64,000 bases of DNA from contig CAZEJO010000002.1 in the NCBI GenBank assembly GCA_964512285.1, forward strand, positions 32,392 through 96,391, in the 5' to 3' direction. Positions 44,013 to 60,290 of the stretch are shown one piece after another. Numbering within the stretch: the first letter of the stretch is position 1; each line of letters opens with the position of its first letter. The translations under genes and the position numbers were made by a program. A model generated the notes under the pieces. The model saw nothing but the letters and a program-made list of their open reading frames with translations, was not told the DNA's origin and searched no databases. This stretch comes from an uncultured Dehalococcoidia bacterium. Its GTDB lineage: Bacteria; Chloroflexota; Dehalococcoidia; SM23-28-2.

Positions 44013-44028
44013 GGTATCTGGATCGGCC

Positions 44029-44538
44029 TTAAGATACTGAGTCGTTAGGGTCGCACCGAAGGTCTTCAAGCACACGCTCCACCACTTCACGCGCTGCCTT
44101 CTCAACCTCCGGGGAGAGCCCTAGGCCAGCCTCGAAGGTCTTCCCTTCAACGCCGTAGACAACAAGCCGCGGCGGAAGCCGGCCGAGCGCCCGCGCAAGT
44201 TCGATGGCCTCAGCAGTGCTAAAGGCGTGAGTGGAGCAATGGGAAAACTCTGTCGGGATGGGCTGCCTGTGGGCATCGAGCCGGTGAAGGATTCCCGGTT
44301 CTGCGCCGGAATGAACCGCATCGATCAGGATAACTGCATCAGCATCCTTCCACGACTCCATCAATGCCGTGCCCTCGCTGCTCTCCTCCAGAACCCGCAC
44401 ATGCTCAGGCGCCCGTTCTCTCAGGCATCGAGCAACGATGAGTCCCACCGCATCATCGTGCCGGTACCGATTGCCGAGGCCGATGACGAGCGTGCCCGAT
44501 CTGCCAGGCGGCATGGCGATTCCTTCAGTCCCGTTCAA
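44029..44538 (-). CDS. Hydrogenase maturation endopeptidase (HoxW/HyaD family), second copy.
   Basis: [16 protein letters not shown]...HSGAEPG motifs. A possible alternative start (44514) would avoid the 14-bp overlap with hydA. Confidence 0.75.
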
Positions 44539-45814
44539 TATGGAGCTTCAAGAAGTGCGCGGAGCAAGAGATGCACGGGTCGTAGTTGCGTATCACCTGC
44601 TCGCACTGCCACGTGAGCTGGTCAGACGGCAGATCCATGTGCTTCGGGACGAACTGCCAGAGGTCGCTTTCGACGCTCTTCTGATTCTGGGAGGTCGGCG
44701 CAACGATCTTCGCGTCGAGGATCACTCCCTGATCATCAACACGGTAGCGATGGTACAAACTGCCGCGCGGCGCCTCGGTGCAGCCGTAGCACGTGGCAGC
44801 GCGCGGCTGAACCTCCACAGCTGGTTTCTCCGGCATCTCGTATTCATCAATGATGCGCAGTGCCTCGTCATAGGCGTAAAGAGTCTCCACACTGCGCACA
44901 ATGATGCTCTTGAACTGATTGCGACAGACGGGCCCAAGCCCGGCATCGCGGGCGGCCTGTTGCGCCAGTGGAGAAAGCTTGTCGAAGTTCAGGTTGTAGC
45001 GCGCCAGGGGACCGACAAGGTAGCTGCCGCGTTCCTTGAGCACAGAGTGCAACGCATTGGTATACGGCACGTGCTCTTCGACGAAGTGGTCATCGTATTC
45101 GCTAAGGGCGATGTCCAACCCCTTGTTGGAAACAAGTCGGCCTTCGGTGATGGCGTATTCGTCTGGGTGGCGCAGGGCGACGAACTCGTAGTCCTGCTCA
45201 AAGTCCGGAAAGGGTAGCGTTGCCGTCCAGCGAACAGTCTCAAGAGCGGCATCGCGCCCCCACTTGAGTTTCTCTATGAAAGGGGCAAGCTCGCGCTTGG
45301 TCGGCGCTCTGTACAATCCACCCACGCGTATGTTGATCGGGTGAACCTCTCTGCCGCCAAGGAGTGCCATAAGCTCATTGCCCACCTTCTTCAACTGCAG
45401 CCCCTTCTGGACGACCTCGGCATGATCCTTCGCCATCTGGATGCCATCGTCGTAGCCGAGGAAGTCGGGGGCATGGAGCAAAAACACATGCAGGGCATGG
45501 CTCTCGATCCATTCACCGCAGTAGATCAGCCGGCGGAGGGCACGGATCTGGGGATCCACAGTCACCCCAAAGGCGCTCTCCATCGCATGGGCCGAGCTCA
45601 TCTGATAGGCGATAGGGCATATGCCGCAGATGCGGGCTGTGATGTCGGGTGCTTCGTTGTACTTGCGGCCGCGCAGGAAGGCCTCGAAGAGACGTGGTGG
45701 TTCCCAAATCTTGAACTTGACGTCCGTCACCGTGTTGTTGCTGATCTTCACATGCAGCGCGCCCTCGCCTTCGACGCGGGCGAGGTAGTTCACCTTTATC
45801 GTCCTACTTTTCAT
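44525..45814 (-). CDS. hydA: [NiFe]-hydrogenase large subunit, group 3b (sulfhydrogenase alpha-like).
   Basis: RICGICP and DPCISCSAH motifs; 429 aa with a short 9-aa C-terminal extension; gene order hydBGDA. Confidence 0.85.
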
Positions 45815-46583
45815 GAGCTACGCTCTCCTCACGAAATGCTTCAGCCCAGGCATTGAATGTACGGAACGCGCGCACTAGGTCCTGTTCCTCCACCCCTAGG
45901 TAGCTCCACCGCCTGCTCAACGAATCCGTATTCGGCGTCTCCATCGGCCCGAAGCACCCGTAACAGCCGCGATAATACGCCGGACAGATAGCGCCACAGC
46001 CGGCCTGGGTTACGGGTCCAAGGCAAGGCGTGCCGTGCGCAACCATCACGCAGACAGTTCCGCGTCTCTTGCACTCGATGCAGACGCTATACAGCGGTAA
46101 GTTTGGTTTGCGTCCATTGAGGAAAGCACTGACGACCTCAAGGAGTTGCTCCTTGTTGATGGGACAGCCGCGTAGCTCAAAATCAACCTGGACGTGGTCG
46201 GCGATGGGCGTTGATGTGGCCAGCGTCTCAATGTATTCCGGCGCGGCGTATACAATGGAGACGAACTCCTGCACGTCCTTGAAGTTACGCAGCGCTTGAA
46301 TGCCACCAGCGGTGGCACAGGCCCCGATGGTAACCAGACACTTCGACCGCCGGCGTATCTGTTGAATCAGCTCAACGTCGTGGGGCGTCGTAATGGAACC
46401 CTCAACCAACGAAAGGTCATAGGGGCCCCTTACCACGGCCCTCGACGCCTCAACAAAGTGGGCGATGTCGACCTGGCCTGCCACAGCGAGCAGTTCGTCT
46501 TCACAGTTGAGAAGGGTCAACTGACAGCCGCTGCAGGAGGCGAATTTCCAGACGGCAAGTTTCGGTTTGCGACTCGGAGGCAA
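45804..46583 (-). CDS. hydD: [NiFe]-hydrogenase small subunit (sulfhydrogenase delta-like).
   Basis: [17 protein letters not shown]...[10 protein letters not shown] (20-kDa NuoB-like fold). Confidence 0.8.
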
Positions 46584-46585
46584 TG

Positions 46586-47461
46586 CTAGACCTCCCGCTT
46601 TGCGAAAAATGGCTGAATCTCAGCGTAGCGGAACACAGGACCGTCTCTACAGACGAAAACGGAGCCAAACTGACAGTGCCCGCAGAAACCAACGCCGCAT
46701 CTCATGTTGCGCTCCATGGAGATGAAGATGTTTTCCGGCTCCACACCCCGGTGCTCTAGCTCGCGCACCGTGAAGCGCATCATCACCTCGGGGCCACAGA
46801 CCAGGGCCACTGTCTGGAAGGGGTCAAACTGGACTCTGGGTATGAGCGTTGTCACAACCCCCACATTGCCGCGGTAACTGGCTGGGGCGGTATCCACCGT
46901 GACATCCACTTCAAGGTCTAATTGGCTGCGCCACTGCTCAAGTTCACGTTTGTAGAGCATGTCCTGGAGCGTTCGCGCACCGTAGACGAGGACGATTCTG
47001 CCGTATTTCTCCCGGTTGGAGAGAAGATGGTACAGCGCTGGGCGCAGCGGCGCCAGCCCGATTCCGCCGGTCACGATCACCACGTCGCTTCCGACGGCTT
47101 CCTCAACGGGCCAGTGATTGCCAAACGGACCGCGCACCCCCAGTACCTCCCCACGCTTCAGCTTGCATAGCGCCTGCGTCACTGTCCCGACCGCGCGCAC
47201 CGTGTGCACGAGCGTCTGAGGTTTGCTGGGGTCGCCACTGATGGAGATCGGCACCTCGCCTACTCCGAACGCATAGAGCATGTTGAACTGCCCGGCGGCA
47301 AATGAGAACTCGCCAGCGCCGTTTGCCGGCTCAAGTTCAAGGGTGAACGTATCGTATGTTTCCTTCCGCACCCTTTGAAGGCAAAAGGGGCTTGGCAGCA
47401 TCGGATCGGAGAGGCCAGCCATTATCGCCTGCTTTTCAAGAGCGAACGCCATCATAGACAT
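46586..47461 (-). CDS. hydG: Sulfhydrogenase gamma-like FAD/NAD(P)-binding [2Fe-2S] oxidoreductase (PyrK-like).
   Basis: FAD/NAD-binding region ...[15 protein letters not shown]...; C-terminal [12 protein letters not shown] cluster motif. Start uncertain: the track ORF begins at 47512, while alternative starts at 47461/47422 reduce the overlap with the upstream cNMP gene. Confidence 0.75.
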
Positions 47462-47906
47462 CCAGAAGCTGCAATCGCGTTGCCTGAAGCCGTTTCTCGA
47501 TGACGTGGGCAATACGCTTCATGAGTTCGTAGCCGAGTTCGTGATCTTCTTCGCATTTGCCGCGAAGGCATGTCCCATCGAGAGCAACAGCCCGTGTCAA
47601 TTCAACCGCTCGGGCTTCGAAACGCCAGCGGTACGGCTCAATGAGCCACGACCAGCCCAGAATATCGCCTTCTCCAAGGGTCTGAATGATGACAGCGCCG
47701 CGATTGGGAGCGAACGTCTCCACTGCCACCGTGCCGTGCCGAATGAGATAGAACAGGTTAGCGGGCTCGCCCTCTCGGAAGATAACCTCCCCTGCTTTGA
47801 ACCGTACATTCGATGCACACCCGGTGAGCAGTTGAAGGTGGGACCTTTCCAGATCCTTGAAGAACGGGTGCTCCCCCAGGATACGTTCAGCATTCTCTAT
47901 AGTCAT
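47436..47906 (-). CDS. Stand-alone cyclic-nucleotide-binding (CAP/Crp effector) domain protein, no HTH.
   Basis: [48 protein letters not shown]...[11 protein letters not shown] gives a cNMP-binding beta-barrel. 156 aa, so too short for a DNA-binding domain. Embedded between hydB and hydG. Confidence 0.6.
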
Positions 47907-47925
47907 CGGTCCTTCCCCTTTTTTG

Positions 47926-49065
47926 TTAGCTCTTACCTACGCTCAGCCGGATCGCGTTCACTTCCTCTGTTATGTCGATTCCAACCGGGCACCAGGTGAT
48001 GCAACGCCCGCAACCCACACAACCCGATGTGCCAAATTGGTCGATCCACGTAGCCAATTTGTGCGTCAGCCACTGGCGATAACGGGCCATCGCTGAGGAA
48101 CGGACGCTGCCGCCGTGGATGTACGAGAAGTCCATAGTGAAGCAGGAGTCCCACTTGCGCCAGCGTTCGGCGTGCTCGCCAGTCAGATCGGTGACATCTT
48201 CCACAGTGGTGCAGAAACAGGTCGGACAGACCATCGTGCAGTTGCCGCATGTTAGGCAGCGCTTGGCGACTTCGTCCCAGTGTGGGCTTTCATAGCTGCG
48301 GTACAGCAAGTTCTCGATGTCCCGCGTGTACATCTTCCGGCCCATTTCGCTGGCGGTTTTCGCCACGATACGTTCGGCTGCCGTCTTTTGCTCTTCACTT
48401 GCCGCTTCATGGGGAACCTCACGGAGAACCTCTGCGCCCAGCTCCGTGCCAACCTCCGCTACGAAGTAGTGGCGGCCTGCCTCCAGCACTTCCGTCAGTG
48501 CAAGATCAAACCCGAACTTCGCCTCCGGCCCGGTATTCATGGAAGCGCAAAAACAGGTGCCGCCAGCATGACCACAGTTAACCGCAACTATGAAGAGACC
48601 TTGGCGCCGTGCTTGGTAGAAGGGGTCCCTGTATTCTCCGCTCAAGAAGATTTTGTCCTGAATGGCGATGGCGTGGATCTCACACGGCCGGACGCCGATA
48701 AACGCAGACTTAGGTACTTCCTCATCCTCTTCCATGATCTGGAACCCGTTACCGCCGGGCTTGGCTCGCCACAGGCGCACGATCGGCGGGTGGAGAAACT
48801 TCTTCCAGGAGTCGGGTCCGACGGTGTAGCCAAAGAGTGCCTCATCGTTGCGTCTCTTGAGACGGTAGGTACCACCGTCCTGCTCGTCTGTCCATCCGAC
48901 AGGCAGATCCGCAACGGAGGTTAGATCGTCGTACACGATAGCACGGTCGCGAACTGTTGGCCCCCTGACCCGATAGCCTCTCTTCTCCAGAGTATCAAGC
49001 AACTGCTGGAGATGATCACGCTCCAAAGCGGCCAACTCCCTGCCCTGTGGAGAGAGCCCTGTCAT
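47926..49065 (-). CDS. hydB: Sulfhydrogenase beta-like / AsrA-like iron-sulfur subunit.
   Basis: Two C-rich [4Fe-4S] motifs ([28 protein letters not shown]). Proposed start MTGLS at 49065 with AAGAGGTG RBS; the track ORF starts at 49140. Confidence 0.75.
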
Positions 49066-49234
49066 ACTGACGCACCTCTTATCCTGAAGATGAGGCCTGC
49101 ACCTGTGGCAGAGAGCAAGAGCATGGCCCGCAAAAGCCAAGAATGTAGACTACGGACAATTCCTAGCGCCGGTCCCAATAGCTGCATAGCCATCTACAAC
49201 CCTCGCACACCCAGAGGAGAAAAGCGAGGATTCA

Positions 49235-49927
49235 TCACGGCGTATCCTCCAGTCTGAACCAGCCTCTTCTTAGCCCGTAAAGTATAGCCTCCGTACGCGA
49301 ACCAACGCCCAGTTTGTGGAAGATGCTCCCGAGGTGGGCTTGAACCGTGCGCACGCTGAGGCAGAGCCCGTTGGCAATATCCTTGTTGGCCATTCCCTTG
49401 GCGACCAGACGCAGCACTTCCATCTCACGCTCCGTAAGAGACTCGTCCGGCTGCTCCTCGCCAGGCTTGCCCTGGAGCGTCCTGAAGCGATCTATGACCC
49501 TGCGGGCGATCGCCGGATGAAGCACAGACTCGCCGGCGTGCACAGCTCGGATGGCCCCGATCAGTTCGCGAGCACGCACGTTCTTCAGCAAGTAGCCCGC
49601 CGCCCCTGCCTCCAAGAGAGCGAAGATATACTGGTCGCTGTCATAGGCGCTGAGTACGAGAACAGCGATGGCTGGACAGTGAGCTTTGATCTGTCTGGTG
49701 GCTTCGATCCCGTTAAGCTTGGGCATGGCGATGTCCATCAGTACTACGTCCGGTCGCAGCTCCACGGCTAGCTTGGCGGCCTCCTCGCCATCGTCAGCCT
49801 CGCCAATCACCTCCATGTCCCGTTCGCGCTGAATGAGTTCGCGGGTGCCCTCTCGCACTACGACGTGATCGTCAGCAAGCAGAACCCTGATCTCATCCAT
49901 GGGGCGCTCCTCCAGCACCTTAGCCAC
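49235..49927 (-). CDS. NarL/FixJ (LuxR-type HTH) response regulator.
   Basis: [20 protein letters not shown] receiver domain + C-terminal LuxR HTH ([36 protein letters not shown]). Paralog of 55973..56662. Confidence 0.8.
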   Translation of the reverse strand: MAKVLEERPMDEIRVLLADDHVVVREGTRELIQRERDMEVIGEADDGEEAAKLAVELRPDVVLMDIAMPKLNGIEATRQIKAHCPAIAVLVLSAYDSDQYIFALLEAGAAGYLLKNVRARELIGAIRAVHAGESVLHPAIARRVIDRFRTLQGKPGEEQPDESLTEREMEVLRLVAKGMANKDIANGLCLSVRTVQAHLGSIFHKLGVGSRTEAILYGLRRGWFRLEDTP

Positions 49928-50348
49928 TGATCATCATAACCCTCCCTAGGAATTCCTTCAATTAGCAGAACGGCGTAGGCAGAATGGCGTACGCCACTGC
50001 TGAAGGACTGATCGTGGTTGTTTCTGAGCCACTCGAGGGCGGGGCTGCTTTTTGCCCGAGTTGCTGGCGCTGGCGACCATCTTCACCATAGAGGAAGCCG
50101 CGAATTGCCGGTGCTCCGGCCAGCTTCCGCGCTGGCCGCTGCTCTGGAGACAAGCCCTCCGGAGATGGGCGAGCTCAGGCTTGGAGCGCTCACTGCTCGC
50201 GCAAGATGGCAATCGGCCAGTGTTTTGGCTGATGGATGCTGATTCTGTTCTCATGCTTTCCTCGTAGGGCATTTGCTGATTGGAGCTAGGCTTTTCTCCC
50301 GATGAAAGGGGCCGCGCTGGCGTCTACCATGGACTCAGGAGGTGCGAA

Positions 50349-50708
50349 ATGACTACTGCATATCTGCTGGTCAAGGCCAAAGAGGAAGCCCGACAGAACG
50401 GCCTCAGGAGCCAGATGGAGGAGCTGCTGGCGTTGCCCGAGGTCGAATCTGTCCAACCAGTCGAGGGCCTGTACGACTGCGTGGCCCAGGTGGACACTCC
50501 CATGACCACCATCTTCGTGACCCACAAAGTCATGAAGATGGGTTGGGTGGCCAGGGTCCACCTGCTGAGAGTGGCCAAGCAGGTCCTGACAACCGCGGAG
50601 ACCGAACAGGAACGCGCAGCCAGGCTGGCCAAGCAGCGCGAGATCATCGGGCGCCACTGGAGCCATGGACGAACATCCTCGGACGGGCCCGCTGAACGTG
50701 CCGCTTGA
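50349..50708 (+). CDS. Small protein with a stand-alone AsnC/Lrp-type RAM (ligand-binding) domain and one C-terminal ARLAKQREII repeat.
   Basis: MTTAYLLVKAKEE...LALPEVESVQPVEGLYDCVAQVD matches the AsnC C-terminal domain signature. Paralog of 59198..59713. RBS GGAGG. Confidence 0.55.
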   Translation: MTTAYLLVKAKEEARQNGLRSQMEELLALPEVESVQPVEGLYDCVAQVDTPMTTIFVTHKVMKMGWVARVHLLRVAKQVLTTAETEQERAARLAKQREIIGRHWSHGRTSSDGPAERAA

Positions 50709-50931
50709 CGATTCGCTCAGCAAACCTACTGTGCAGCCCAGCAGGCAAACAAACGGCTGCAGACAGAACCTCGAACACCGGAGGTGACGCCTATGCTCAC
50801 GTCACCCCCAGGAGGACCCAGACGATGGCACTGGCCGGGTGCAGAAAAGGGGCCCTAGGGTACAGCGGATGACCGAGGTGTTTACGCCCGAGGGTCAGCC
50901 ATGTGGGGCACAGCGATGGGAGTGGGAATGG

Positions 50932-52293
50932 TCAGGAGTTCCCCTCCGTGGGTCTTCCTTCGCTGACATCTCGAGCGATAACTTGAAAGGCCTTGGGGTG
51001 ACCATCCCTGGTGATCAGGATTGCGCTCAGCCTGAGATGAACCTCCGACCCGTCCTCTTTTTTCAACCCCTGCTCATAAGACCCGCCCAAAGCTTCGCCC
51101 CGCAGTAGCTTGCGTCTCGCCTCTCTGGCCCGCTTGAGGTCCTCTTTGGAAAGGAAGTCCTTGACATTCATACCGATGAGCTTTTCTCGGGAATAGCCGG
51201 TAAGTTCGACACAGGCCCTGTTGACAGCGATGATCTCGCCCTCTAAGTCATGAAATAGGATCGCCTCTGTAGCGTTCTCAAGCAGGCCGCGATAGTTCTC
51301 TTCCGACCGTTGAAGCCAAGCCGCGATTCCTCGCTCCTTCTCATAGAGACGAGCATTCTCAACTGCGATGCCGATGACTCTGCCGCTGGCGCAAAGCAGA
51401 TCTGTTTCCTCGCGGGCAAACCCTCTGGCGTGACGTGTGGCCACGCAAAGCGTCCCCAAGACCTTCCCCTTCGACTCCAAAGGGGCGATAAACTCCGCTA
51501 CAATCTTTTCCTGGGCAATCATCGGCTTCGTAAGCCTGGGATCATGGGAAGCATCTTCTACCACCAGTGGCTCGCCGGTCTGGGCCACTAGTCCATTGAA
51601 GCCCTCGCCAACCTTCATTCTCTTCAGGCTGGCAGCGGTTATTTCAGATATTCCCTGATAAGTTTCGAGCACGAGCTCGTGGCCCCCTTCATCAACCAGG
51701 GATATCAAAACGGCATCCACGTTCGCCACTTCCATTACCTTGCCGGCGGCCAGGTTCAGGATGTCCCGCAGCTCCAGGGACTGGCTGACGATATTGGAGA
51801 TGCCATTGACGGCGGCGAGCTGCCTCTCACTCATCTGGATGACTTCTAGCTGCGCCTGAAGCTGCTGCTGGGCCGCTTGCAGTCTCGAAAGCACCTCTTC
51901 GCGGCGCCCTCTTTCGGCCCGGAGTCGCTCAAAGCCAACGTTGATCACGGCACCCGCAGCGATAACGCCACCCACCTCCACCAGGGCATCGGAGCGATAG
52001 TCGGAGATAGCGAGGGCCCTTGGCAGCATGATGGCGAGAGCCAATGCCGAGGCAGCTAGCCCCGCCCTCATCCCGAACAGGAAGCCGACATAGGTGATGG
52101 GTAGCAGCATGAAGACGCGCTCGATTGCGTGCCGCTCTAGACCCAGCACAGAGCCCGGGTCCTCTATGTGCAGGAAGGGGAGCAACTCATCCGGGTAGTG
52201 CATGGGGATAGCCACTAGGAACATGACCACCGCAACCCAGAGTTCCACGCTCCCCATGGCTTCTGATATCCGGCCTGTGGCCTGCCGCTTCAT
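50932..52293 (-). CDS. Membrane-anchored GAF-PAS sensor protein lacking a kinase domain (truncated paralog of 56719..58725).
   Basis: N-terminal 3-4 TM helices (VELWVAVVMFLVAIPMHYPDELLPFL...), coiled linker, GAF and PAS domains. It ends where the paralog continues into the HisKA_3/HATPase domains. Proposed start MKRQATG at 52293 (RBS GGAGG). The track ORF N-extension is a regulator remnant. Confidence 0.65.
   Translation of the reverse strand: MKRQATGRISEAMGSVELWVAVVMFLVAIPMHYPDELLPFLHIEDPGSVLGLERHAIERVFMLLPITYVGFLFGMRAGLAASALALAIMLPRALAISDYRSDALVEVGGVIAAGAVINVGFERLRAERGRREEVLSRLQAAQQQLQAQLEVIQMSERQLAAVNGISNIVSQSLELRDILNLAAGKVMEVANVDAVLISLVDEGGHELVLETYQGISEITAASLKRMKVGEGFNGLVAQTGEPLVVEDASHDPRLTKPMIAQEKIVAEFIAPLESKGKVLGTLCVATRHARGFAREETDLLCASGRVIGIAVENARLYEKERGIAAWLQRSEENYRGLLENATEAILFHDLEGEIIAVNRACVELTGYSREKLIGMNVKDFLSKEDLKRAREARRKLLRGEALGGSYEQGLKKEDGSEVHLRLSAILITRDGHPKAFQVIARDVSEGRPTEGNS
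51803..52227. repeat. ~430-bp tract nearly identical (about 99% over the first 290 bp, about 95% beyond) to 58235..58659, within the paralogous sensor genes.
   Basis: Direct comparison of the two regions; the identical 183-bp antisense ORFs 51877..52059 and 58309..58491 in the track are a by-product. Confidence 0.85.
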
Positions 52294-52521
52294 GTCCGCC
52301 TCCTCTGGGGATGGGGCCCAGCTGAGGGGTTCCTCAAACTCGTCCTGCAGGCTGAACCAGCCTCCTCCTAGTCCACGAAGTACGGCCTCGCTGCGCGCAC
52401 CTCCAGAACGTCCCCCGTTGCCTATGATAGTCCCCTTTGGTGATCGCTTCAATCGCAGGAATCGCCTAGGGAGAATAGCGGATGCCCCCTTCGGAAAACG
52501 CTGGGCACTCCAGTTTGTCAT
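52294..52521 (-). pseudogene. Remnant C-terminal fragment of a LuxR-type response regulator fused in-frame upstream of the sensor gene.
   Basis: ...SEAVLRGLGGGWFSLQDEFEEP resembles regulator C-termini ([15 protein letters not shown] at 55973; ILYGLRRGWFRLED at 49235). Analogous to the remnant at 58750..58947. Confidence 0.4.
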
Positions 52522-52669
52522 AGGCGTTTGCCCTGGGCAGACCTACGTGCTTTATCGAGGGCGAAATTAGGCCATGCCTCAGATGGCAGATGACGGGCAG
52601 AGCTGTACCTTGAAGCTGGATCGAGGAGGTTAGCCCGAAGAAAGTTCTACGAGAGAGGAGGTTAGCGAG

Positions 52670-52996
52670 ATGACAACGATCGCTTCCAAGGGGTTCGTTT
52701 CCATCTCCGAGGAGTCGGTTCAAGCAGCCCCGGAGTCAGAGACAGCTTGGATCGCCAGGCTGAAGCGGCAGCGGGAGATCATCAAGGCTTACCGTGCCGG
52801 CCTTCCGCGTCCGCCGGGTCCGGAGCCACAGCTTCATTTTGGCCATGCTGGCCCTCCTGGCTGGGAGGAAGCTTGGTTTGCCAGGCTGAAGAGGCAGCGG
52901 CAGATCATCAAGGCTCACTACGAGAAGCGCCGCGCGGCGACGGAGGCTGTCCCTCTTCCAGTGAGGGAACGGCAGGACCTCGCCAAGGCCGCCTAA
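52670..52996 (+). CDS. Small protein consisting only of the tandem AWxARLKRQREIIKAY / AWFARLKRQRQIIKAHY repeats, with a -LAKAA C-terminus (RAM domain absent).
   Basis: C-terminal 75 aa align with the C-terminal half of the 59198..59713 protein (same repeats, same DxAKAA end). RBS GAGAGGAGG. Confidence 0.45.
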   Translation: MTTIASKGFVSISEESVQAAPESETAWIARLKRQREIIKAYRAGLPRPPGPEPQLHFGHAGPPGWEEAWFARLKRQRQIIKAHYEKRRAATEAVPLPVRERQDLAKAA

Positions 52997-53062
52997 AGCT
53001 CATTCGAATGGCCGGGGGCGTGCTACGCAGAAGGCAAGACAGCTGATTACGCAAGGAGCCGA

Positions 53063-54379
53063 TTGAAAGCCATGCAAGGTTCTCGCCTAGGTCCGACGCG
53101 ACATCATCTCTGCTCCTTTTGTGGCAAGAGCGAGGAGCAGGTACGCCACCTTATTGATGGCCCCGGCTCTGTCTACATATGCGACGAGTGCGTCCAGCTT
53201 TGCCAACAGATTCTACAGGAGAAGATGATTCAGCGACCCAGCGCTAGGGTGGCCCTGCAACGGGTGCCGCCCCCTAAGATCATCTATGATCAGCTCGGTG
53301 AGTACGTGGTGGGCCAGGAGCAGGCCAAGAAGGTGCTGTCGGTGGCCGTCTATAGACACTACAAGCGCATCTCCAACAGCGAACGACTCGAGGACATCGA
53401 ACTGGAGAAAAGCAATATCCTGCTTCTGGGCCCCACCGGCTGCGGCAAGACCCTTCTCGCCCGCACCCTGGCCAAGATTCTCGATGCCCCCTTCACCATC
53501 GCCGATGCCACTACCTTGACCGAGGCGGGCTATGTGGGCGAGGACGTGGAGAACATTCTCCTGCCCCTTATCCGGGCGGCAGACTACGATATCACGCGCG
53601 CCGAGCGGGGAATCGTCTACATCGACGAGATCGACAAGATCGCCCGCAAGAGCGGCTACAACCCCTCCATCACCCGCGACGTGTCAGGAGAGGGAGTCCA
53701 GCAGGCGCTGCTGAAGATCATCGAGGGGTATGTGGCCAATGTGCCGCCTCAGGGTGGTCGGAAGCATCCTCAACAGGACTTCATCCAGATCAACACGGCC
53801 AACATCCTCTTCATATGCGGTGGCGCCTTCCTAGAACTGGATGCAATCATCGATAGGCGCGTGGGCGCAAGCAGACGCTCCCTGGGCTTCCGGGCGGGCC
53901 TCGCTCAAGAGGACTCGACTAAGACCCGCGATGAGATCCTCACTCATGTGGCGCCTGATGACCTCTTGGAGTACGGCCTTATCCCCGAGTTCGTGGGACG
54001 CCTGCCGGTGATTGCGCCTCTGCAATCGCTGGACAAGCAGGCCATGATGGCTATCCTTACCGAGCCCAAGAACGCCCTGGTGAAGCAGTTCCAGCGCTTC
54101 TTCGCTCTGGACGGGGTAGAGCTAGTATTCACCGAGGATGCGCTGGAGGCGGCGGCTGAGGAGGCCATGCGGCACAAGATGGGCGCCCGCGGCCTGCGCA
54201 CGGTGGTGGAGGACACCCTGTTGGACGTGACGTACGAGATCCCCTCCCACCCCAACATCAAGAAGTGTGTGGTCAATGCTGAAGCCATACTGGGTCACCG
54301 GAAGCCTATCCTACTTAGCGCTGACGGCCAGGCGGTGGAGCCGTCGGAGGAAGAGGAAGCCCGCGCCGAGACAGCCTAG
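53063..54379 (+). CDS. clpX: ATP-dependent Clp protease ATP-binding subunit ClpX.
   Basis: N-terminal zinc-binding CSFCGK...CDEC, Walker [15 protein letters not shown], pore loop GYVGEDVEN, sensor motifs; 438 aa. Confidence 0.9.
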
Positions 54380-54623
54380 GCTGGCTCCCCTAGCCATTTA
54401 GCCACCCGCCCTACCACGTAGCTCTGACTCCGCTCAGATCTTGAGGGGATAACCCTACGGCACAGTCGTCAAGTGCTGATTCCAGTAGCTCATAGACCAC
54501 ATCCCTTGCCCCCAGCAATTGTATGCTCGACCGCTGAGCGAACCCCGACAGCCTGTCTGAGAAGCAAGAGGCCGCCCATTCGGCGGCCTTCGCCTTGCAT
54601 GCGTTGTGACTGTTAGTCAGAGA

Positions 54624-54901
54624 TGGAGCGGGAGACGGGGATCGAACCCGCGACAACCTGCTTCGAAGGAAGAAGGTCATCTGATTGGGCAGCGCTAATT
54701 GCTAAGCCCCCAGATTCGAAGATCGGGGTGAAAACGGGGCAAAAGCAGGGTGCAAATGAGCTCTCACCGAAACGGGCGGCAGGTCCTGACCCTGCTCCAT
54801 CGGCAATCGAGCGACCCCATACAGCCCTCGAAGGGATGTCAGGTGCCTTTCGCCGGCTTCCTCGGTTTCGCGTCGAACAATCTAAGCACCCGCGGCTGCC
54901 A
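54624..54901 (-). ncRNA. ssrA: tmRNA-like (ssrA) gene, ~278 nt; atypical, and the tag reading frame is unresolved.
   Basis: Minus strand 5' GCGGGUGCUUAGAUUGUUCGACGCGAAACCGAGG... resembles the tmRNA 5' end / helix 2 (E. coli GGGGCUGAUUCUGGAUUCGACGGGAUUUGCGAAACCCAAGG). 3' end ...GCGGG-UUCGAUC-CCCGU-CUCCCGC-U-CCA is a tRNA-like T-arm + acceptor with encoded CCA. Located next to clpX. Short length, a U-U mismatch, G3-C rather than G3-U in the proposed acceptor, and no clean ...LAA* tag frame lower confidence. Confidence 0.5.
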
Positions 54902-55025
54902 GGCCCATAATGAGGGCGGCTCGCCCTCGCCGCAGGCACGTGGCACGCCAGGAGGCGGTGGCTGGTAGGCCTTGCCGACGCCCTGCATGCGGTTACCCCG
55001 CCGGACATGGTAGTATCTCTCTGAG

Positions 55026-55226
55026 ATGCCGATCTACGAGTACGTCTGCTCCTCATGCGGCTACCGCTTCGAGAAGCTGGTGCGGAGCATTGGTTCCGGA
55101 CAGCCGAAGACGCGTTGCCCCCAGTGTCACAAGGACAACGCGCAACGGGCCGTCTCATCCTTCGCCGTAGGCGGCGGGGCATCGCCGGGCTTGCCAGTCG
55201 AACCTGGCCCAGTTGGCGGCGGTTGA
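55026..55226 (+). CDS. FmdB-family zinc-ribbon regulatory protein.
   Basis: [16 protein letters not shown]...TRCPQCH CxxC...CxxC zinc ribbon typical of the FmdB family; 66 aa. Confidence 0.7.
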
Positions 55227-55386
55227 AGCCTGACCCGATGCTGATCCCGTGGGGATCGGGTCGCTGGCCAACGCCATGGTGTGCTTCGTGGTGGCGATGG
55301 GTGCGGGTAACAGTGCCAGCCAGGGTGATGCCCAAAGATCTCATAAAGCTTCTGACACTGAAAGGTGCCAAGTGGCGCAGATAGAT

Positions 55387-55659
55387 GTGCGAACGACGCC
55401 TGAGGGTGAAGGCTGGGCCTTCCAGGTGACTGTGTCAGGGGGCGGCGGCCAAACTAGCCACCGCGTCACTATGAGCCGCAACACCTACCAGCAGCTAACC
55501 GGCGAGGTGTGCACTCCAGAGGAACTTGTGCGGAGATCGTTTGAGTTCCTCCTAGAACGCGAGCCTAGGGAATCCATCCTCCGCGAGTTCGAGATCACGG
55601 TCATTTCGCGGTACTTCCCAGACTACGAACGCGAGATCAGCAAACGCATTCGCCCTTGA
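55387..55659 (+). CDS. Hypothetical small protein.
   Basis: Open frame with GTG start; no recognisable motif; weak RBS. Confidence 0.3.
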   Translation: MRTTPEGEGWAFQVTVSGGGGQTSHRVTMSRNTYQQLTGEVCTPEELVRRSFEFLLEREPRESILREFEITVISRYFPDYEREISKRIRP

Positions 55660-55972
55660 CGCTGGTCGAGGCTCCTGCCTCACGGGGCCGCACACTATGT
55701 CTTCTCTGTTATTGATAGGCTGAGCGAAGCGAGCACGGAAAGTACTAGTCCGTGTCTGTGAACTCGAAAGCCTCGAGGCGACGTACTGCGAGGAGGAGAG
55801 CGAGGACAGCGGTGAGTGGTCTTGCGACTTGCCCTGACAGGGCCAAACCTGCAAAGCGTGGCGCTAGGCCTCATCACCTAGAGTGCCACGCAGCGATTCC
55901 TCAAGACAATGGGAACGGATCTGCCCAGCCGATCCCCCTGTTTAACCGTCAGATGACGTAGTAGACTAGTAG

Positions 55973-56662
55973 TTGGAGACAAGGGAGGACTCGATGGAGA
56001 AGATTCGCGTTCTGCTGGCCGAGGACCATGTAGTGGTGCGTGAGGGCACGCGCGAACTGATACAGCAAGAGCAGGATATGGAAGTGGTGGGCGAGGCCGG
56101 GGACGGGGAAGAAGCCATAGAACTGGCCGCCGAGCTTCGCCCAGACGTGGTGATAATGGATATCGCCATGCCCAAGGTCAACGGCATCGAGGCAACCAAG
56201 CGGATCAAGGAACTCTACCCGGCCACCGCCGTATTGATACTGACCGCCTACGATAATGAGCAGTACATCTTTGCCCTTCTTGAGGCGGGGGCGGCAGGGT
56301 ACTTGCTGAAGAATGTGCGCCGCAGCGAGCTCATTGATGCCGTGCGCGCAGTGCGCGCGGGCGAGTCAGTCCTTCATCCCGTGGTAACCCAAAAGGTCCT
56401 AGAGCGGCTCCGGAGCGGTGAAGGTAGGCCAGGTGAAAAGGGAGGGAGTGGATACATCCTCAGTGAACGGGAGATGGAGGTCCTCCGCCTGGCGAGCAAA
56501 GGCATCAGCAACAAGGACATTGCCAGAGAACTTGTGGTTAGCGTGCGGACGGTTCAGGCTCACCTGGGTAATATTTTCAACAAGCTGGGGGTGGGTTCGC
56601 GAACGGAGGCTGTGCTGCACGCGTTGAGACGAGGCTGGTTCAGCCTGGACAAGGAGATCTAA
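55973..56662 (+). CDS. NarL/FixJ (LuxR-type) response regulator, paralog of 49235..49927.
   Basis: [41 protein letters not shown] receiver domain; C-terminal Lux[40 protein letters not shown]. Confidence 0.8.
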
Positions 56663-56718
56663 GAAGCTCCCCGGTCATGGCTGGTCTGCCTAAACTGGCT
56701 TGAGTGATCCCCTTCCGC

Positions 56719-58725
56719 CTAAGCTGGCACCTCGACAGTTACCGTTGTGCCTTTGTCCAATTCCGACTCTAGTGTCAGCTTGCCACCGACAAGGCGAACT
56801 CGCTCTTCCATCCCGGCCAGGCCAAGCTTGCCAACGTTGGTCAGGTCTGCCGTGTTTCGAGGAGCCTTGAAGCCCTTGCCATTGTCTCTGACGCTGAGGG
56901 TGGTCTTGCCGTGATCGAATTCCAGCGTAACCCAAGCCCGCGAGGCCTCGGAGTGTTTCCAAACGTTCCTTAGCGCTTCCTGAGCGACGCGGAAAAGGAC
57001 CAGCTCCACCTCGGGGGAGAAGCGGCGCTCCGCGCCCATCACCGCCATGCCGATAGTTATGTCGAAATGCTTTTCCAGGTCAGAGATGAGCCACTCTAGG
57101 GCAGGCAACAGGCCCAGATCATCTAGTACGGACGGACGCAGGTCCTGGCTGAAGCGACGCACACCTTCCAGTATCTTGTCGACCCGTGCCTGTATCTCCT
57201 CCAGAAGCTTGAGGTCTTGCTTTGACAGTTTCCTCGGTACGGAAGTCAAACCGTCCAGCTGACGGGACAGGGCCACCAGTTCTTGAGCTGTCTCGTCATG
57301 AAGCTCACGGGCGATGCGCTTGCGCTCTTCTTCTTGGGCTTTGGTGACCTGGTGAAGGAAAAAGCGCAGGTTCGCCTGCATCCGCTTTTCCTCGGTGATA
57401 TCGCGGGCGATAAGCTGATAGGCTCTGGACTGACCATCGCCAGTAATCAGGCTTGCGCTCAGACTGAGACTGGCCTGCGAGCCGTCCTTTCTTCTGATTT
57501 CGCCTTCATAACGCCTGTTTACCATCCCGCCTATGAGCAGCTTGCGCCGAACCTCCCTTGTCCGCTGAAGAGCCTCCCCGGAGAGAAAATCCTCGACGTT
57601 CATGCCAACGAGTTCTTCTCGCGAATAGCCGGTCAGCTTGACACAGGCCTCATTGGCCATGATGATCTCGCCATCTAGATTCTGAACCCAGATGGCATCC
57701 TCGGCGCTTTCAAACAGGTCGCGATAGTTCTTCTCCGATATTCGCAGCTGTTCGGCCATCAACCGCTCTTCCTGATAGAGGCGGGCATTCTCCACGGCGA
57801 TGGCGACAACGTTTCCGCCAGCACAAAGGAGATCTATCTCCTCAGCAGGAAAGCGTCTGGGATGACGTGCGGCCACGCAGAGAGTGCCCAACACCCTCCC
57901 TTTGGACTTGAGAGGGACGATAAGCTGAGCTTGAATCCCCTCCTGACTCACTGCCGCCCTCGTCAGTCTAGGGTCTTGAGAGGCATCTTCTACCACTAGT
58001 GGCTCGCCGGTCTGAGCCACTAGTCCATTGAAACCCTCGCCCACCTTCATCCTCTTCACGCTGGCAGCGGATATCTCAGATATGCCTCGATAGGTTTCCA
58101 GGACAAGCTCATCGGTCGCCTCATCGATCAGGAATACCAAGATGGTCTCTAGGTTCGCCACTTCCATCACCTTGTCGGCGGCCAGATTCAGGATATCTGG
58201 CAGCTCCAGAGACTGGCTCACTATGCTAGAGATGGCATTGACGGCGGCGAGCTGCCTCTCACTCATCTGGATGACTTCTAGCTGCGCCTGAAGCTGCTGC
58301 TGGGCCGCTTGCAGTCTCGAAAGCACCTCTTCGCGGCGCCCTCTTTCGGCCCGGAGTCGCTCAAAGCCAACGTTGATCACGGCACCCGCAGCGATAACGC
58401 CACCCACCTCCACCAGGGCATCGGAGCGATAGTCGGAGATAGCGAGGGCCCTTGGCAGCATGATGGCGAGAGCCAATGCCGAGGCAGCTAGCCCCGCCCT
58501 CATCCCGAACAGGAAGCCGACGTAGGTGATGGGTAGCAGCATGAAGACGCGCTCGATTGCGTGCCGCTCCAGGCCCAGCACAGAACCCGGGTCCTCTATG
58601 TGCAGGAAGGGGAGCAACTCATCCGGGTAATGCATGGGGATAGCCACTAAGAACATGGCTACCGCAAGCAAGAGTTCGAAGCTGCGGATACCCTGTGCCA
58701 CCTGGTCTGTGGACTGCCGTCTCAT
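56719..58725 (-). CDS. Membrane-anchored GAF-PAS sensor histidine kinase (HisKA_3/NarX-type + HATPase_c).
   Basis: N-terminal TM helices nearly identical to the 50932 paralog, then GAF, PAS, H-box ARELHDETAQELVAL (HisKA_3) and HATPase (GKGF...GLAGMEERV...GGKLT). Confidence 0.8.
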   Translation of the reverse strand: MRRQSTDQVAQGIRSFELLLAVAMFLVAIPMHYPDELLPFLHIEDPGSVLGLERHAIERVFMLLPITYVGFLFGMRAGLAASALALAIMLPRALAISDYRSDALVEVGGVIAAGAVINVGFERLRAERGRREEVLSRLQAAQQQLQAQLEVIQMSERQLAAVNAISSIVSQSLELPDILNLAADKVMEVANLETILVFLIDEATDELVLETYRGISEISAASVKRMKVGEGFNGLVAQTGEPLVVEDASQDPRLTRAAVSQEGIQAQLIVPLKSKGRVLGTLCVAARHPRRFPAEEIDLLCAGGNVVAIAVENARLYQEERLMAEQLRISEKNYRDLFESAEDAIWVQNLDGEIIMANEACVKLTGYSREELVGMNVEDFLSGEALQRTREVRRKLLIGGMVNRRYEGEIRRKDGSQASLSLSASLITGDGQSRAYQLIARDITEEKRMQANLRFFLHQVTKAQEEERKRIARELHDETAQELVALSRQLDGLTSVPRKLSKQDLKLLEEIQARVDKILEGVRRFSQDLRPSVLDDLGLLPALEWLISDLEKHFDITIGMAVMGAERRFSPEVELVLFRVAQEALRNVWKHSEASRAWVTLEFDHGKTTLSVRDNGKGFKAPRNTADLTNVGKLGLAGMEERVRLVGGKLTLESELDKGTTVTVEVPA
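58235..58659. repeat. Second copy of the near-identical ~430-bp tract (see 51803..52227).
   Basis: Direct comparison of the two regions. Confidence 0.85.
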
Positions 58726-58749
58726 CTCGGCCTCTTCTGCGGATGGGGC

Positions 58750-58947
58750 CTAGGCGGAGGGTTCTTCAAGCTCGTCGTGCAAGTCGAGCCATCCCGTCTT
58801 GAGCCCATAGAGCACAGACTCGCCAATCGCATCCATGTCCCGTTCGCGCCGAATGAGTTCGCGGGTGCCTTCCCGCACCACAATACTATCCTCAGCAAGC
58901 AGAACGCTGATCTTCTCCATGGCGCCTTCCTCCAGCACCTCAGCCAC
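58750..58947 (-). pseudogene. In-frame internal-deletion remnant of a LuxR-type response regulator (N-terminal 43 aa joined to the C-terminal ~20 aa).
   Basis: [43 protein letters not shown] | SVLYGLKTGWLDLHDELEEP. Compare with the intact regulator at 49235: [43 protein letters not shown]...EAILYGLRRGWFRLEDTP. Confidence 0.55.
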
Positions 58948-59197
58948 TGACCATCATAACCCTCTCTAGAGATCGCTTCAATTGGCAGGACAGCGTAGGC
59001 AGAATCGCCTACATCCCTGCCAAAGAGACGTAGGTGACCCCGCTTCTCATAGGCATTTGCTCAGAAGAGAGACAGGTGCTTTCTCCGAGAGGAGATTAGG
59101 CCTTCGCTCGGATGGCAGGTGGTTGGCACAAGTATAGGCTGAAATTGGATCGAGGAGATTGGCCCGGAGAAGGTCCAGCAGACAGGAGGTTAGGAAG

Positions 59198-59713
59198 ATG
59201 GCAACGACGGCTTACTTGCTGATTAGAGCGTCGGAAGCTATCCGGAACAACGGGTATCTCAAGGCGCTCGAAGACTTATGGGCACTCCCTGAGGTCGAGT
59301 ACGTGGAGCCAGTATCGGGCCTGTATGACTGTGTGGCGAGGGTAGAGGCACCGATAAGGCTCATCTTTCTGGTCCACAAGATCATGGCGAAGAGCTGGAT
59401 CGAGCGTGTGCACGTCCTCAGGGTTGACCAGCCAGTCGCAACAGCCCTGGAGTCCGAGGAAGCTCGGACGGCGAGACTGATGCGGCAGCGCGAGATCATC
59501 AAGGCTTACCTTGCTGGCCTTCCGCGTCCGACCGGACCAGAGCCAGAGCTCCATGCTGGTCATGCTGGTCCTCCTGGCTGGGAGAAGGCCTGGATGACCA
59601 GACTGAAGCGGCAGCGCGAGATCATCAAGGCTCACTACCGGGAGCGCCGCGCGGCGTCGCAGGCTGACACTCCTCCAGCGGAGGAAGGGCAGGACATCGC
59701 CAAAGCCGCCTAA
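59198..59713 (+). CDS. Small protein: stand-alone AsnC/Lrp-type RAM domain + tandem ARLMRQREIIKAY / TRLKRQREIIKAHY repeats, with a -IAKAA C-terminus.
   Basis: MATTAYLLIRASE...LWALPEVEYVEPVSGLYDCVARVEAP is a RAM-domain signature. The C-terminal half duplicates the 52670 protein. RBS AGGAGG. Confidence 0.55.
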   Translation: MATTAYLLIRASEAIRNNGYLKALEDLWALPEVEYVEPVSGLYDCVARVEAPIRLIFLVHKIMAKSWIERVHVLRVDQPVATALESEEARTARLMRQREIIKAYLAGLPRPTGPEPELHAGHAGPPGWEKAWMTRLKRQREIIKAHYRERRAASQADTPPAEEGQDIAKAA

Positions 59714-59723
59714 AGCTCATTCG

Positions 59724-60290
59724 ATGGAGGCGATGGAGATGAGGGTAAGAAGCTTCGAAACAGCGCTCCGGACTAAAGTGGAGACGGAAGGAGGCGGCAG
59801 CATGACACCTGTTCATCCGCCACGGAGGATGAGAGCGGTGGGTTACGTGAGACAAGGCTTCGGGGAGATGGACAGGAAGCGGACCAGCCCCGAGGAGCAA
59901 AAAGCAAGGATAGCTGGCTGCGCCGATGCCCATGGCTGGCACCTCGTCCAGACCTATGAAGACATTGGCTGGTCAGGAGGCGACCTGAGCAGACCGGGCC
60001 TACCTGAGCTGCTCTCCAGGTCAGACTTCGAGATCCTGATAGTAGATAGGACGGATCGCCTGACGGGCAAGAAGAAGGACCTGGACTTCTTACTCGCCCT
60101 GCTCGAGAAGCGCGGCATCACTTGTGTGCCTGCCACCTGGTCGTGGGAGCCTCTGGCTCAGTACATGAGATGCTGGTACCGCCTGAAGGCCGATCCTGTA
60201 TATGCCTTGCTCGACTCATCGCCTGTAGTAACTGACTCGGCCCTGGCCAAAGACGATGCGTCTGCAGGTGCAGCGAAGGCCGCAGCCTAA
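59724..60290 (+). CDS. Serine-recombinase (resolvase/invertase) catalytic-domain-like protein, probably degenerate; no DNA-binding domain.
   Basis: RAVGYVRQ...TSPEEQKARIAGCADAHGWHLVQTYEDIGWSGGDLSRPGLPELL...FEILIVDRTDRLTG parallels the resolvase N-domain (YARVSTxxQ...cadahGw.lv..y.D.g.SG....RPgl..ll........d.liV...DRL.R). The catalytic Ser region is disrupted by an insertion. 188 aa. Confidence 0.35.
   Translation: MEAMEMRVRSFETALRTKVETEGGGSMTPVHPPRRMRAVGYVRQGFGEMDRKRTSPEEQKARIAGCADAHGWHLVQTYEDIGWSGGDLSRPGLPELLSRSDFEILIVDRTDRLTGKKKDLDFLLALLEKRGITCVPATWSWEPLAQYMRCWYRLKADPVYALLDSSPVVTDSALAKDDASAGAAKAAA

Follow-up and report, generated by a model that had tools for sequence, protein, structure and literature searches.

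Probable differently pruned copies of a clade-specific two-component cassette, and gene conversion of its membrane-sensor module, in an uncultured Dehalococcoidia bacterium

The signalling locus described here resembles four kinds of described system. The first comprises two-component systems of the NarL/LuxR class, such as NarX-NarL, LiaS-LiaR and MctS-MctR. The second is that of accessory ("third component") sensors: degenerate paralogues, or paralogues lacking a kinase, through which the activity of a cognate histidine kinase is modulated. In the third, gene conversion makes bacterial paralogues evolve in concert, as in tuf genes and rRNA operons. Lastly, stand-alone RAM proteins of the Lrp/AsnC (feast/famine) type form oligomers and have amino acids or 2-oxoacids as ligands; what they do physiologically is unclear (PMC2995911). 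We analysed a locus at 49.2-60.3 kb of a 64,000-nucleotide (nt) stretch of an uncultured Dehalococcoidia genome (the window; contig CAZEJO010000002.1, positions 32,392 to 96,391). It encodes a histidine kinase (HK2), a kinase-less sensor (sens1), two NarL/LuxR-type response regulators (RRs; LuxR1 and LuxR2) and small RAM-repeat proteins (S). Comparison loci and proteins are numbered with L and P, respectively.

Similar to the NarL/LuxR-class systems, HK2 carries HisKA_3 and HATPase_c domains, and the regulators carry REC and GerE domains. The best NCBIfam matches were MctS/UhpB/LiaS/NarX for HK2 and MctR/MadR/NarL for the regulators; equivalog scores were far under the cut-offs (157 bits vs 700 for MctS), and neither HK2 nor the regulators are thus orthologues of a named system. 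Unlike NarX-NarL type systems, the input here is an unclassified bundle of four transmembrane (TM) helices with a cytoplasmic GAF-PAS region, and the cassette pairs each kinase with two regulators and adds a RAM-repeat gene in divergent orientation. sens1 resembles accessory sensors in that it has no catalytic domains, lies near a full kinase and shares the membrane/dimerisation module of that kinase. It differs from them in that its link to HK2 appears as concerted evolution of the TM/coiled-coil segment alone. This pattern is like that of tuf and rRNA genes in the sharply bounded near-identity of otherwise diverged paralogues and in shared lineage-specific variants, but it affects one domain module of a signalling protein and recurs across related strains. 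S shares the beta-alpha-beta-beta-alpha-beta fold, free of a helix-turn-helix (HTH), with the stand-alone RAM proteins STS042 (2zbc), TTHA0845 (2djw) and P. horikoshii DM1. The profile similarity is weak, with the S match below the Pfam gathering score, and S differs in having 1-4 C-terminal helical repeats and in being confined to one Dehalococcoidia clade.

Comparison with related sequences points to a canonical cassette with the order RRa(+) / histidine kinase(-) / RRb(-) / conserved control region / S(+), in which RRa converges on the kinase and RRb opens the kinase operon. The window very probably holds three old, differently pruned copies of this one clade-specific cassette. We observed the order kinase(-), intact regulator of 226-230 amino acids(-) and divergent S(+) in L004/L013 (CP070630.1), L011, L012, L014 and L018; L004 has an additional second regulator, convergent and downstream of the kinase. 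A scan of 185,579 species genomes returned 13 Dehalococcoidia/Chloroflexota loci in a few metagenome-assembled genomes, plus one weak unrelated match. Cassette C (55973-59713) has kept RRa (LuxR2), HK2 and S2, and its RRb is reduced to a 65-codon relic. Cassette B (50349-52996) consists of the kinase-less sens1, a tail of ~22 RRb codons and an S gene without its RAM domain (S1b). Cassette A (49235-50010) has kept RRb (LuxR1) and lost its S gene. The map below was built from the open reading frame (ORF) listing, translation and Pfam scans; the basis of each assignment is given in brackets.

49235-49927, minus strand: LuxR1, RRb-class response regulator with REC and GerE, cassette A (Pfam Response_reg, GerE)
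49933-49961, minus strand: promoter-like site of the RRb leader, copy A (consensus scan)
50010/50011, no strand: scar of the lost S gene (S_x) and its leader (comparison with L030)
50349-50708, plus strand: S1a, divergent paralogue of S comprising a RAM-like domain and a single helix repeat (alignment)
50932-52293, minus strand: sens1, 453-amino-acid kinase-less sensor; mechanical ORF 50932-52521 (Pfam GAF, PAS)
51804-52217, minus strand: tract assigned to gene conversion, copy 1, inside sens1 (paralogue alignment)
52343-52406, minus strand: RRb relic B, ~22 C-terminal codons (translation; alignment to the intact L004 RRb)
52424-52452, minus strand: promoter-like site of the RRb leader, copy B (consensus scan)
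52521-52669, plus strand: 148-nt S leader/control region, copy B (nhmmer E = 4.9e-35)
52670-52996, plus strand: S1b, S paralogue without a RAM domain (alignment)
55973-56662, plus strand: LuxR2, RRa-class response regulator with REC and GerE, likely start ATG 55994 (Pfam)
56719-58725, minus strand: HK2, 668-amino-acid histidine kinase (Pfam GAF, PAS, HisKA_3, HATPase_c)
58236-58649, minus strand: tract assigned to gene conversion, copy 2, inside HK2 (paralogue alignment)
58750-58947, minus strand: RRb relic C, 65-codon ORF (translation; comparison with the L004 RRb)
58953-58981, minus strand: promoter-like site of the RRb leader, copy C (consensus scan)
59050-59197, plus strand: 148-nt S leader/control region, copy C (nhmmer, alignment)
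59198-59713, plus strand: S2, full 171-amino-acid S with a RAM-like domain and two helix repeats, start at 59159 or 59198

The initial annotation had described this locus as two paralogous modules. Self-blastn within the window supported the paralogy: the sensors matched at 80.7% over 1414 bp (50955-52362 vs 57388-58794, E = 0), the S genes at 83% (52725-53007 vs 59442-59724), and the intergenic regions, proposed to be homologous, at 69% (52400-52685 vs 58929-59213). Further matches were 49795-50000 vs 58815-59020 (83.5%), 49245-49303 vs 52343-52401 (76%) and LuxR1 vs LuxR2 in inverted orientation (71%). The count of two was too low, as LuxR1 with its leader (49928-50010) forms a third cassette; S1a, likewise absent from that description, is a third S paralogue. 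Pfam recovered the two minus-strand multi-TM GAF-PAS sensors, one with a kinase (HK2) and one ending right after PAS, as well as the intact regulators said to flank the modules (REC and GerE in both). The divergent small repeat proteins were found on the plus strand as described (52670-52996 and 59159/59198-59713); the RAM domain ascribed to both is missing from S1b. Differential domain loss between the modules was also borne out, with kinase, RRb and RAM missing from different copies. The canonical arrangement sought in related genomes was found intact elsewhere in Dehalococcoidia.

The duplication had further been called recent, a snapshot of a signalling system being rewired. Synonymous divergence (dS) within the window was 0.95 for sens1 vs the HK2 GAF-PAS region, 1.96 for LuxR1 vs LuxR2 and 2.4 for S1a vs S2, and the copies are only ~70-72% identical in nucleotides outside the conversion tract. 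A recent duplication is therefore not tenable. The picture of ongoing rewiring did not hold up either: the derived genes have orthologues of the same architecture, with ratios of non-synonymous to synonymous divergence (dN/dS) of 0.24-0.40. These data show purifying selection on sens1, S1a and S1b, which are maintained genes; decay is confined to the RRb relics.

We traced the order of cassette B by a metagenome scan with S1a and by contigs holding close relatives of sens1. The order S1a / kinase-less sensor / regulator tail / S1b / clpX was complete in L023, L028, L029 and L030, and partial in L010 and L024. L030, which is 93-95% identical to the window in nucleotides, has 701 extra bp at 50010|50011, comprising the S gene S_x, divergent from LuxR1, and its conserved leader. 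S_x is present in L030, L028, L010 and L024 and absent from the window and L029. In L028, L010 and L024, LuxR1 is gone save for a 5' stub homologous to 49891-50006. The comparison indicates that the window lineage, like L029, lost the S gene of cassette A recently. LuxR1 stands in its ancestral place, because L030 has it there with its own S and the other three loci keep the stub. The same observations led us to reject the possibility that the regulator missing beside HK2 had moved and survives as LuxR1.

The initial annotation had also reported a near-identical conversion tract between the two sensors, and this we could confirm. The tract (51804-52217 vs 58236-58649) has 5 mismatches in 414 bp, including a perfect run of 286 bp (51804-52089), and its flanks are ~70% identical. 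It spans residues ~26-163 of sens1, which comprise the four TM helices (from TM1) and the coiled-coil linker. In the tract, dS falls to 0.06, compared to 0.95 in the downstream GAF-PAS region, and the encoded protein is 100% identical. Both window paralogues carry the same base, distinct from that of L029, L030 and L001, at positions that include nt 243, 255 and 324 of sens1. Because these window-specific variants are common to both paralogues, the conversion is later than the split from L029, L030 and L001. The tract thus shows the marks of gene conversion: a sharp drop in dS relative to the flank, sharp boundaries and shared lineage-specific variants. On these alignments, the recent event is gene conversion and not the domain losses.

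We observed the same pattern among the genomes compared. In the GAF-PAS region, orthologues of sens1 and orthologues of the kinase group apart (88-90% identity within and 72-76% between groups). In the TM tract, sens1 and kinase orthologues are intermixed, at 83-95% nucleotide identity. The sens1 of L030 and the kinase of L001, which come from one sample, are 95% identical in the TM tract, and the tract is 92-97% identical between paralogues in independent assemblies too. Intermixing in the TM tract together with separate GAF-PAS groups suggests that homogenisation of this one module is recurrent.

HK2 is the sole intact kinase among the cassettes of the window. It comprises four TM helices, a coiled coil, GAF, PAS, HisKA_3 (PF07730 E = 1.2e-13, residues 467-534, with the H-box RIARELHDE visible in the translation) and HATPase_c (PF02518 E = 4e-14, residues 574-667). 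It is collinear with the L001 kinase at 95-97% nucleotide identity either side of the tract, and the kinases of L001, L002 and L005 are ~96% identical to it in amino acids. sens1 has the same input domains (four TM helices, coiled coil, GAF and PAS); Pfam found neither HisKA nor HATPase_c in it, and self-comparison found no kinase remnant in the 223 bp downstream. Its C-terminus lies 7 residues past the start of the HK2 linker to HisKA_3. The L010 orthologue stops at the identical point, TE(K/G)NS*. P0121, which is 100% identical to sens1, was gene-called at 453 amino acids, and a further 10 sens1-like protein clusters (85-88% identity) are also 453 amino acids long, save for two at 430. dN/dS of sens1 vs its orthologues was 0.24-0.26. 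The mechanical sens1 ORF reaches 52521, running through RRb relic B, because the stop codon of that relic is now Trp. Separately, the kinases of L011, L012 and L018 match HK2 at 83-84% nucleotide identity in GAF-PAS and kinase core and have a different TM module (69%), a pattern that indicates, at the level of sequence, shuffling of the membrane-domain module between cassette lineages.

PF00072 and PF00196 match both LuxR1 and LuxR2, whose translations show the DD/ED pair and the DVV(L/I)MDI motif. LuxR1 is 77-80% identical in amino acids to the regulator directly upstream of the kinase in L004, L011, L012, L014 and L018. LuxR2, which is convergent with HK2, is 93% (L004) and 97% (L001) identical to the convergent regulator. 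By this relationship LuxR1 is of the RRb type, deleted beside both sensors, and LuxR2 of the RRa type; the two are not equivalent partners.

Translation confirmed that a LuxR remnant lies upstream of each sensor in the frame of that sensor, as had been proposed. We considered whether these remnants are small genes misread as relics. Five relatives carry an intact regulator exactly there, so the remnants are relics. Relic B comprises ~22 C-terminal RRb codons in frame with the sens1 leader; its start is lost and its stop codon changed to Trp. Its length varies by lineage, with 41 codons and a stop in L028, ~22 codons in the window and ~15 in L023. Relic C comprises 43 N-terminal and 22 C-terminal RRb codons joined at 58815/58816. 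Compared to the L004 RRb, it shows a single clean in-frame deletion of 510 bp (170 codons) that removed the phospho-acceptor Asp and the HTH and preserved the native 24-nt gap from the relic stop to the HK2 start. The same relic is present in L001, L002 and L005. Between the window and L001, relic C is 83% identical in amino acids, compared to 97% for HK2 and LuxR2, with dN/dS of 0.55 and dN of 0.093 vs 0.017 for its neighbours. These values suggest relaxed constraint. The RRb remnants thus have the properties of pseudogene relics: an intact homologue in relatives, loss of essential residues and variable erosion.

Of the 141 S homologues that we found, none carried a Pfam domain, and every one came from a Dehalococcoidia metagenome bin. 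When 1.84 billion representatives were searched exhaustively with a profile, 97 clusters (50% identity) emerged, mostly RAM-only proteins of 90-130 amino acids. S proteins have a stand-alone RAM domain followed by 1-4 helical ARLxRQREIIKAY repeats with Pro-rich linkers between them. An AlphaFold2 model of S, from a 12-sequence alignment, had a mean predicted local distance difference test score of 67.5 (73-84 in the N-terminal domain). It showed a beta-alpha-beta-beta-alpha-beta domain, closest to RAM modules, followed by two long helices. An S profile search matched 2zbc (E = 0.0045). PF01037 matched all 12 sequences weakly (best E = 0.0012), with 15.8 bits vs a gathering cut-off of 25. The predicted fold supports the RAM label for S at fold level. 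The C-terminal repeats had no match in Pfam, NCBIfam, PHROGs or PDB sequence searches. The literature likewise yielded nothing about the cassette or about S proteins; what it offered was general background to stand-alone RAM proteins.

S1a converges on the 3' end of sens1; its dN/dS is 0.34, and its orthologues in L010 and L023-L028 are 82-84% identical in amino acids. S1b shows a net in-frame loss of 63 codons that removed the RAM domain and kept two helix repeats. Its orthologues (108 amino acids) occur in L008, L023, L028 and L029, with dN/dS of 0.36-0.40. The repeat number varies from 1 to 4 among S homologues (P0002, P0006, P0010 and P0052), and L008 holds the RAM-less S1b gene in two tandem copies (114-791), which together suggest that the repeat region is prone to expansion. 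Extra S paralogues with the same leader lie away from two-component genes (L001 17926-18545, L003/L009 and L016), next to genes for acetyl-CoA synthetase, a SatP/YaaH-type acetate channel and HdrABC-like proteins. A further S paralogue (P0074) is probably present on the source contig beyond the right end of the window.

A 148-nt non-coding leader lies directly 5' of S genes. It is ~75-90% conserved, even between S paralogues that are 59% identical. It precedes essentially every S gene (L001-L030) and shows stronger conservation than the coding sequence of distant paralogues. nhmmer located it in the window at 59050-59197 and 52521-52669 only, and elsewhere before S genes only, save for clpX in L026/L027 and a few weak partial matches. 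In copy C the direct repeat TAGGCNTTNGCTCNGA occurs twice, at 59050 and 59097 (47 bp apart). We rejected a structured RNA or riboswitch for now (RNAalifold -2.2 kcal/mol, no covarying pair; Rfam empty), and indels ruled out a coding sequence. Between RRb and S, the divergent control region of the canonical cassette is ~250 bp long and conserved. A consensus scan found a sigma-70-like promoter site, TTGAAG-17-TATGAT, at homologous positions in all three RRb leaders. With these promoter-like sites retained, the relics are placed downstream of them, as part of the 5' leaders of sens1 and HK2. In L026 (1063-1192) and L027 (3338-3467), the first 104 nt of the S leader abut clpX, with sens1 and S1b missing; clpX may be expressed from an S-type promoter throughout the clade.

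The cassettes adjoin or enclose the following other features.

47436-47906, minus strand: cNMP-binding protein, downstream of LuxR1
47926-49140, minus strand: ShyB/HydB-like Fe-S subunit, downstream of LuxR1
53063-54379, plus strand: clpX (zf-C4_ClpX, AAA_2, ClpB_D2-small)
54569-54589, no strand: hairpin, beside the tRNA-like 3' half
54624-54673, minus strand: tRNA-like 3' half (read from the sequence)
55026-55226, plus strand: FmdB-type zinc-ribbon gene
55249-55659, plus strand: unnamed ORF (ORF listing)
59724-60290, plus strand: protein with a resolvase N-terminal domain only (PF00239)

LuxR1 precedes, as first gene, a set of sulfhydrogenase-like NiFe hydrogenase genes (~44000-49140, minus strand). 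Further genes of this set encode a NAD-binding subunit, the NiFe small and large subunits and HycI (L029 gene table). This arrangement suggests that LuxR1 controls, or is co-transcribed with, the hydrogenase operon. The 188-amino-acid protein directly after S2 (PF00239 E = 1.7e-11; PHROG integrase E = 2.4e-15) has an N-terminal resolvase/serine-recombinase domain and no DNA-binding domain. It is kept in L001 and L002 (94-96% amino acid identity, dN/dS 0.25) and absent there in more distant relatives.

clpX, as annotated initially, matched PF06689, PF07724 and PF10431 (zinc finger, AAA+ and small domain). S1b ends 67 nt 5' of it, and this adjacency is kept in L008, L023, L028, L029 and L030. 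The ssrA (transfer-messenger RNA, tmRNA) gene that had been placed beside clpX was not recovered: ARAGORN, Rfam at the gathering threshold and Rfam at E ≤ 10 over 54300-56000 were all negative. We rejected a tmRNA between clpX and LuxR2, where only a tRNA-like 3' half lies on the minus strand. This half (54624-54673) has an anticodon arm, a T arm, the acceptor 3' strand and CCA, and the hairpin follows it. Its CTCCCGC implies G3-C70 and not the G3:U70 of a tmRNA acceptor, and no 5' strand or tag ORF was found upstream. ARAGORN found only tRNA-Arg(TCG) and tRNA-His in the window, both elsewhere, and the half is not a copy of either. None of the relatives has a tRNA downstream of clpX.

Synteny with L030, the closest relative, stops at 54566, right where the tRNA-like half and its hairpin lie, and synteny with L001 restarts at 55915. 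The window-specific segment between them (54567-55915) holds the hairpin, the tRNA-like half, the FmdB gene and the unnamed ORF, and its start may be an old integration or recombination site. In sample 3300061472, the modules lie on contigs with other flanks (clpX / ADH-like in L030; PBP-A2M / LuxR2 in L001). The side-by-side placement of cassettes B and C may thus be strain-specific.

We weighed four other explanations of these observations. One is that a single module was duplicated recently and is still decaying, which would make sens1 and S1b young derivatives akin to pseudogenes, on their way to loss or rewiring. The almost identical 414-bp tract, the regulator relics and the very recent difference in S_x between the window and L030 would fit it. 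It is nonetheless very unlikely, given ~70-72% identity between copies outside the tract at dS of 0.95-2.4, orthologues of the same architecture for each derived form (the sensor end point being the same in L010) and dN/dS of 0.24-0.40 for sens1, S1a and S1b. Alternatively, the repeat tract or the juxtaposition of modules could be a chimera or a collapsed consensus of metagenome assembly. Short-read assemblers struggle with a perfect repeat of 286 bp, 54567-55915 is bridged by no independent contig, and the modules of sample 3300061472 have different flanks. Against this, collinearity with the window extends over all of sens1 plus its two flanks in L029 and L030, and over all of HK2 plus its two flanks in L001, L002 and L005. 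Collinear independent contigs over both sensors make a cross-over chimera at the repeat unlikely. Similarly, the tract is 92-97% identical between paralogues in those independent assemblies, and the junction segment is unique sequence and not a repeat. We therefore give an assembly artefact a very small chance.

Very strong purifying selection on the membrane sensing domain, without gene conversion, is the least probable of the four. The TM region is the most conserved part of the sensors across genomes (83-95% in nucleotides), and the tract is 100% identical in protein, as such selection would predict. What it does not account for is the ~16-fold fall in synonymous divergence in the tract (0.06 vs 0.95), the derived bases common to both window paralogues and absent from L029, L030 and L001, the sharp boundaries, and the intermixing of paralogue clades in the tract alone; no overlapping functional element constraining synonymous sites was seen in the tract. 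Finally, the 65-codon relic C could be a functional small gene, either for a mini-protein or as an upstream ORF to which the translation of HK2 is coupled. Its reading frame is open in the window, L001 and L002, with native start, stop and 24-nt gap to the kinase, its deletion is an exact multiple of three (510 bp), and its dN/dS of 0.55 is below 1. We consider this unlikely, as relic C has neither the phospho-acceptor Asp nor the HTH and is 83% identical in amino acids vs 97% for both neighbours. With 13 non-synonymous and 7 synonymous changes in relic C, the numbers are too small to reject neutral evolution, and relic B is eroding to different lengths with its start lost.

Taken as a whole, we find it likely that cassette evolution by differential pruning, together with the following mechanism, is the best explanation of the locus. 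HK2 would phosphorylate LuxR2 and probably also the unlinked LuxR1. Both regulators would act on the S leaders, their own leaders and the hydrogenase operon. sens1, which shares the membrane and dimerisation module of HK2, could tune HK2 either by pairing with it as a heterodimer or by competing for the same membrane signal, and would contribute a different, diverged GAF-PAS input. The S proteins would bind a metabolite via RAM and act via their helical repeats as output or adaptor proteins. The co-sensor step between sens1 and HK2 is tentative, a possibility to which we lend limited credence. More doubtful is a joint reading in which sens1 is a dedicated co-sensor of HK2, conversion is selected for an interchangeable TM/coiled coil, heterodimers merge two GAF-PAS inputs, and the S proteins are metabolite-gated effectors expressed from the ultra-conserved 148-nt region.

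Several points weigh against our account. We infer every functional step of the mechanism from sequence. The evidence for a sens1-HK2 interaction is the homogenised TM and coiled-coil region alone, and selection for a shared membrane signal or topology without physical interaction gives the same pattern. An unlinked kinase encoded elsewhere in the genome may be the partner of LuxR1. The S leader has no conserved NarL-type inverted repeat and no RNA structure, and its role as a regulator target is putative. Lastly, segment 54567-55915, which places cassettes B and C side by side, is unique sequence without an independent contig.

Relics, kinase-less paralogues, paralogous two-component systems and gene conversion are all known phenomena, and in this respect our result is incremental. 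Less usual are a conversion that recurs and stays within one domain module, a RAM-repeat family specific to one clade, and the strong conservation of the leader of that family. The locus shows the diversification of a two-component cassette with orthologues at each stage: loss of a regulator by clean in-frame deletion, a kinase-less sensor under selection, and homogenisation of the membrane/dimerisation module alone. If sens1 and HK2 do form heterodimers, domain-restricted concerted evolution would be a genomic signature that predicts sensor paralogues that work together. If sens1 is a co-sensor and the S proteins are effectors, the circuit could connect, through the S proteins, with genes of hydrogenase, Hdr-like and acetate metabolism, and possibly with ClpX. 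Our data also flag a family of RAM and helical-repeat proteins with an unusually conserved leader in uncultured Dehalococcoidia of the marine-sediment type. This family adjoins hydrogenase, Hdr-like and acetate-activation genes, in organisms with almost no known regulation.

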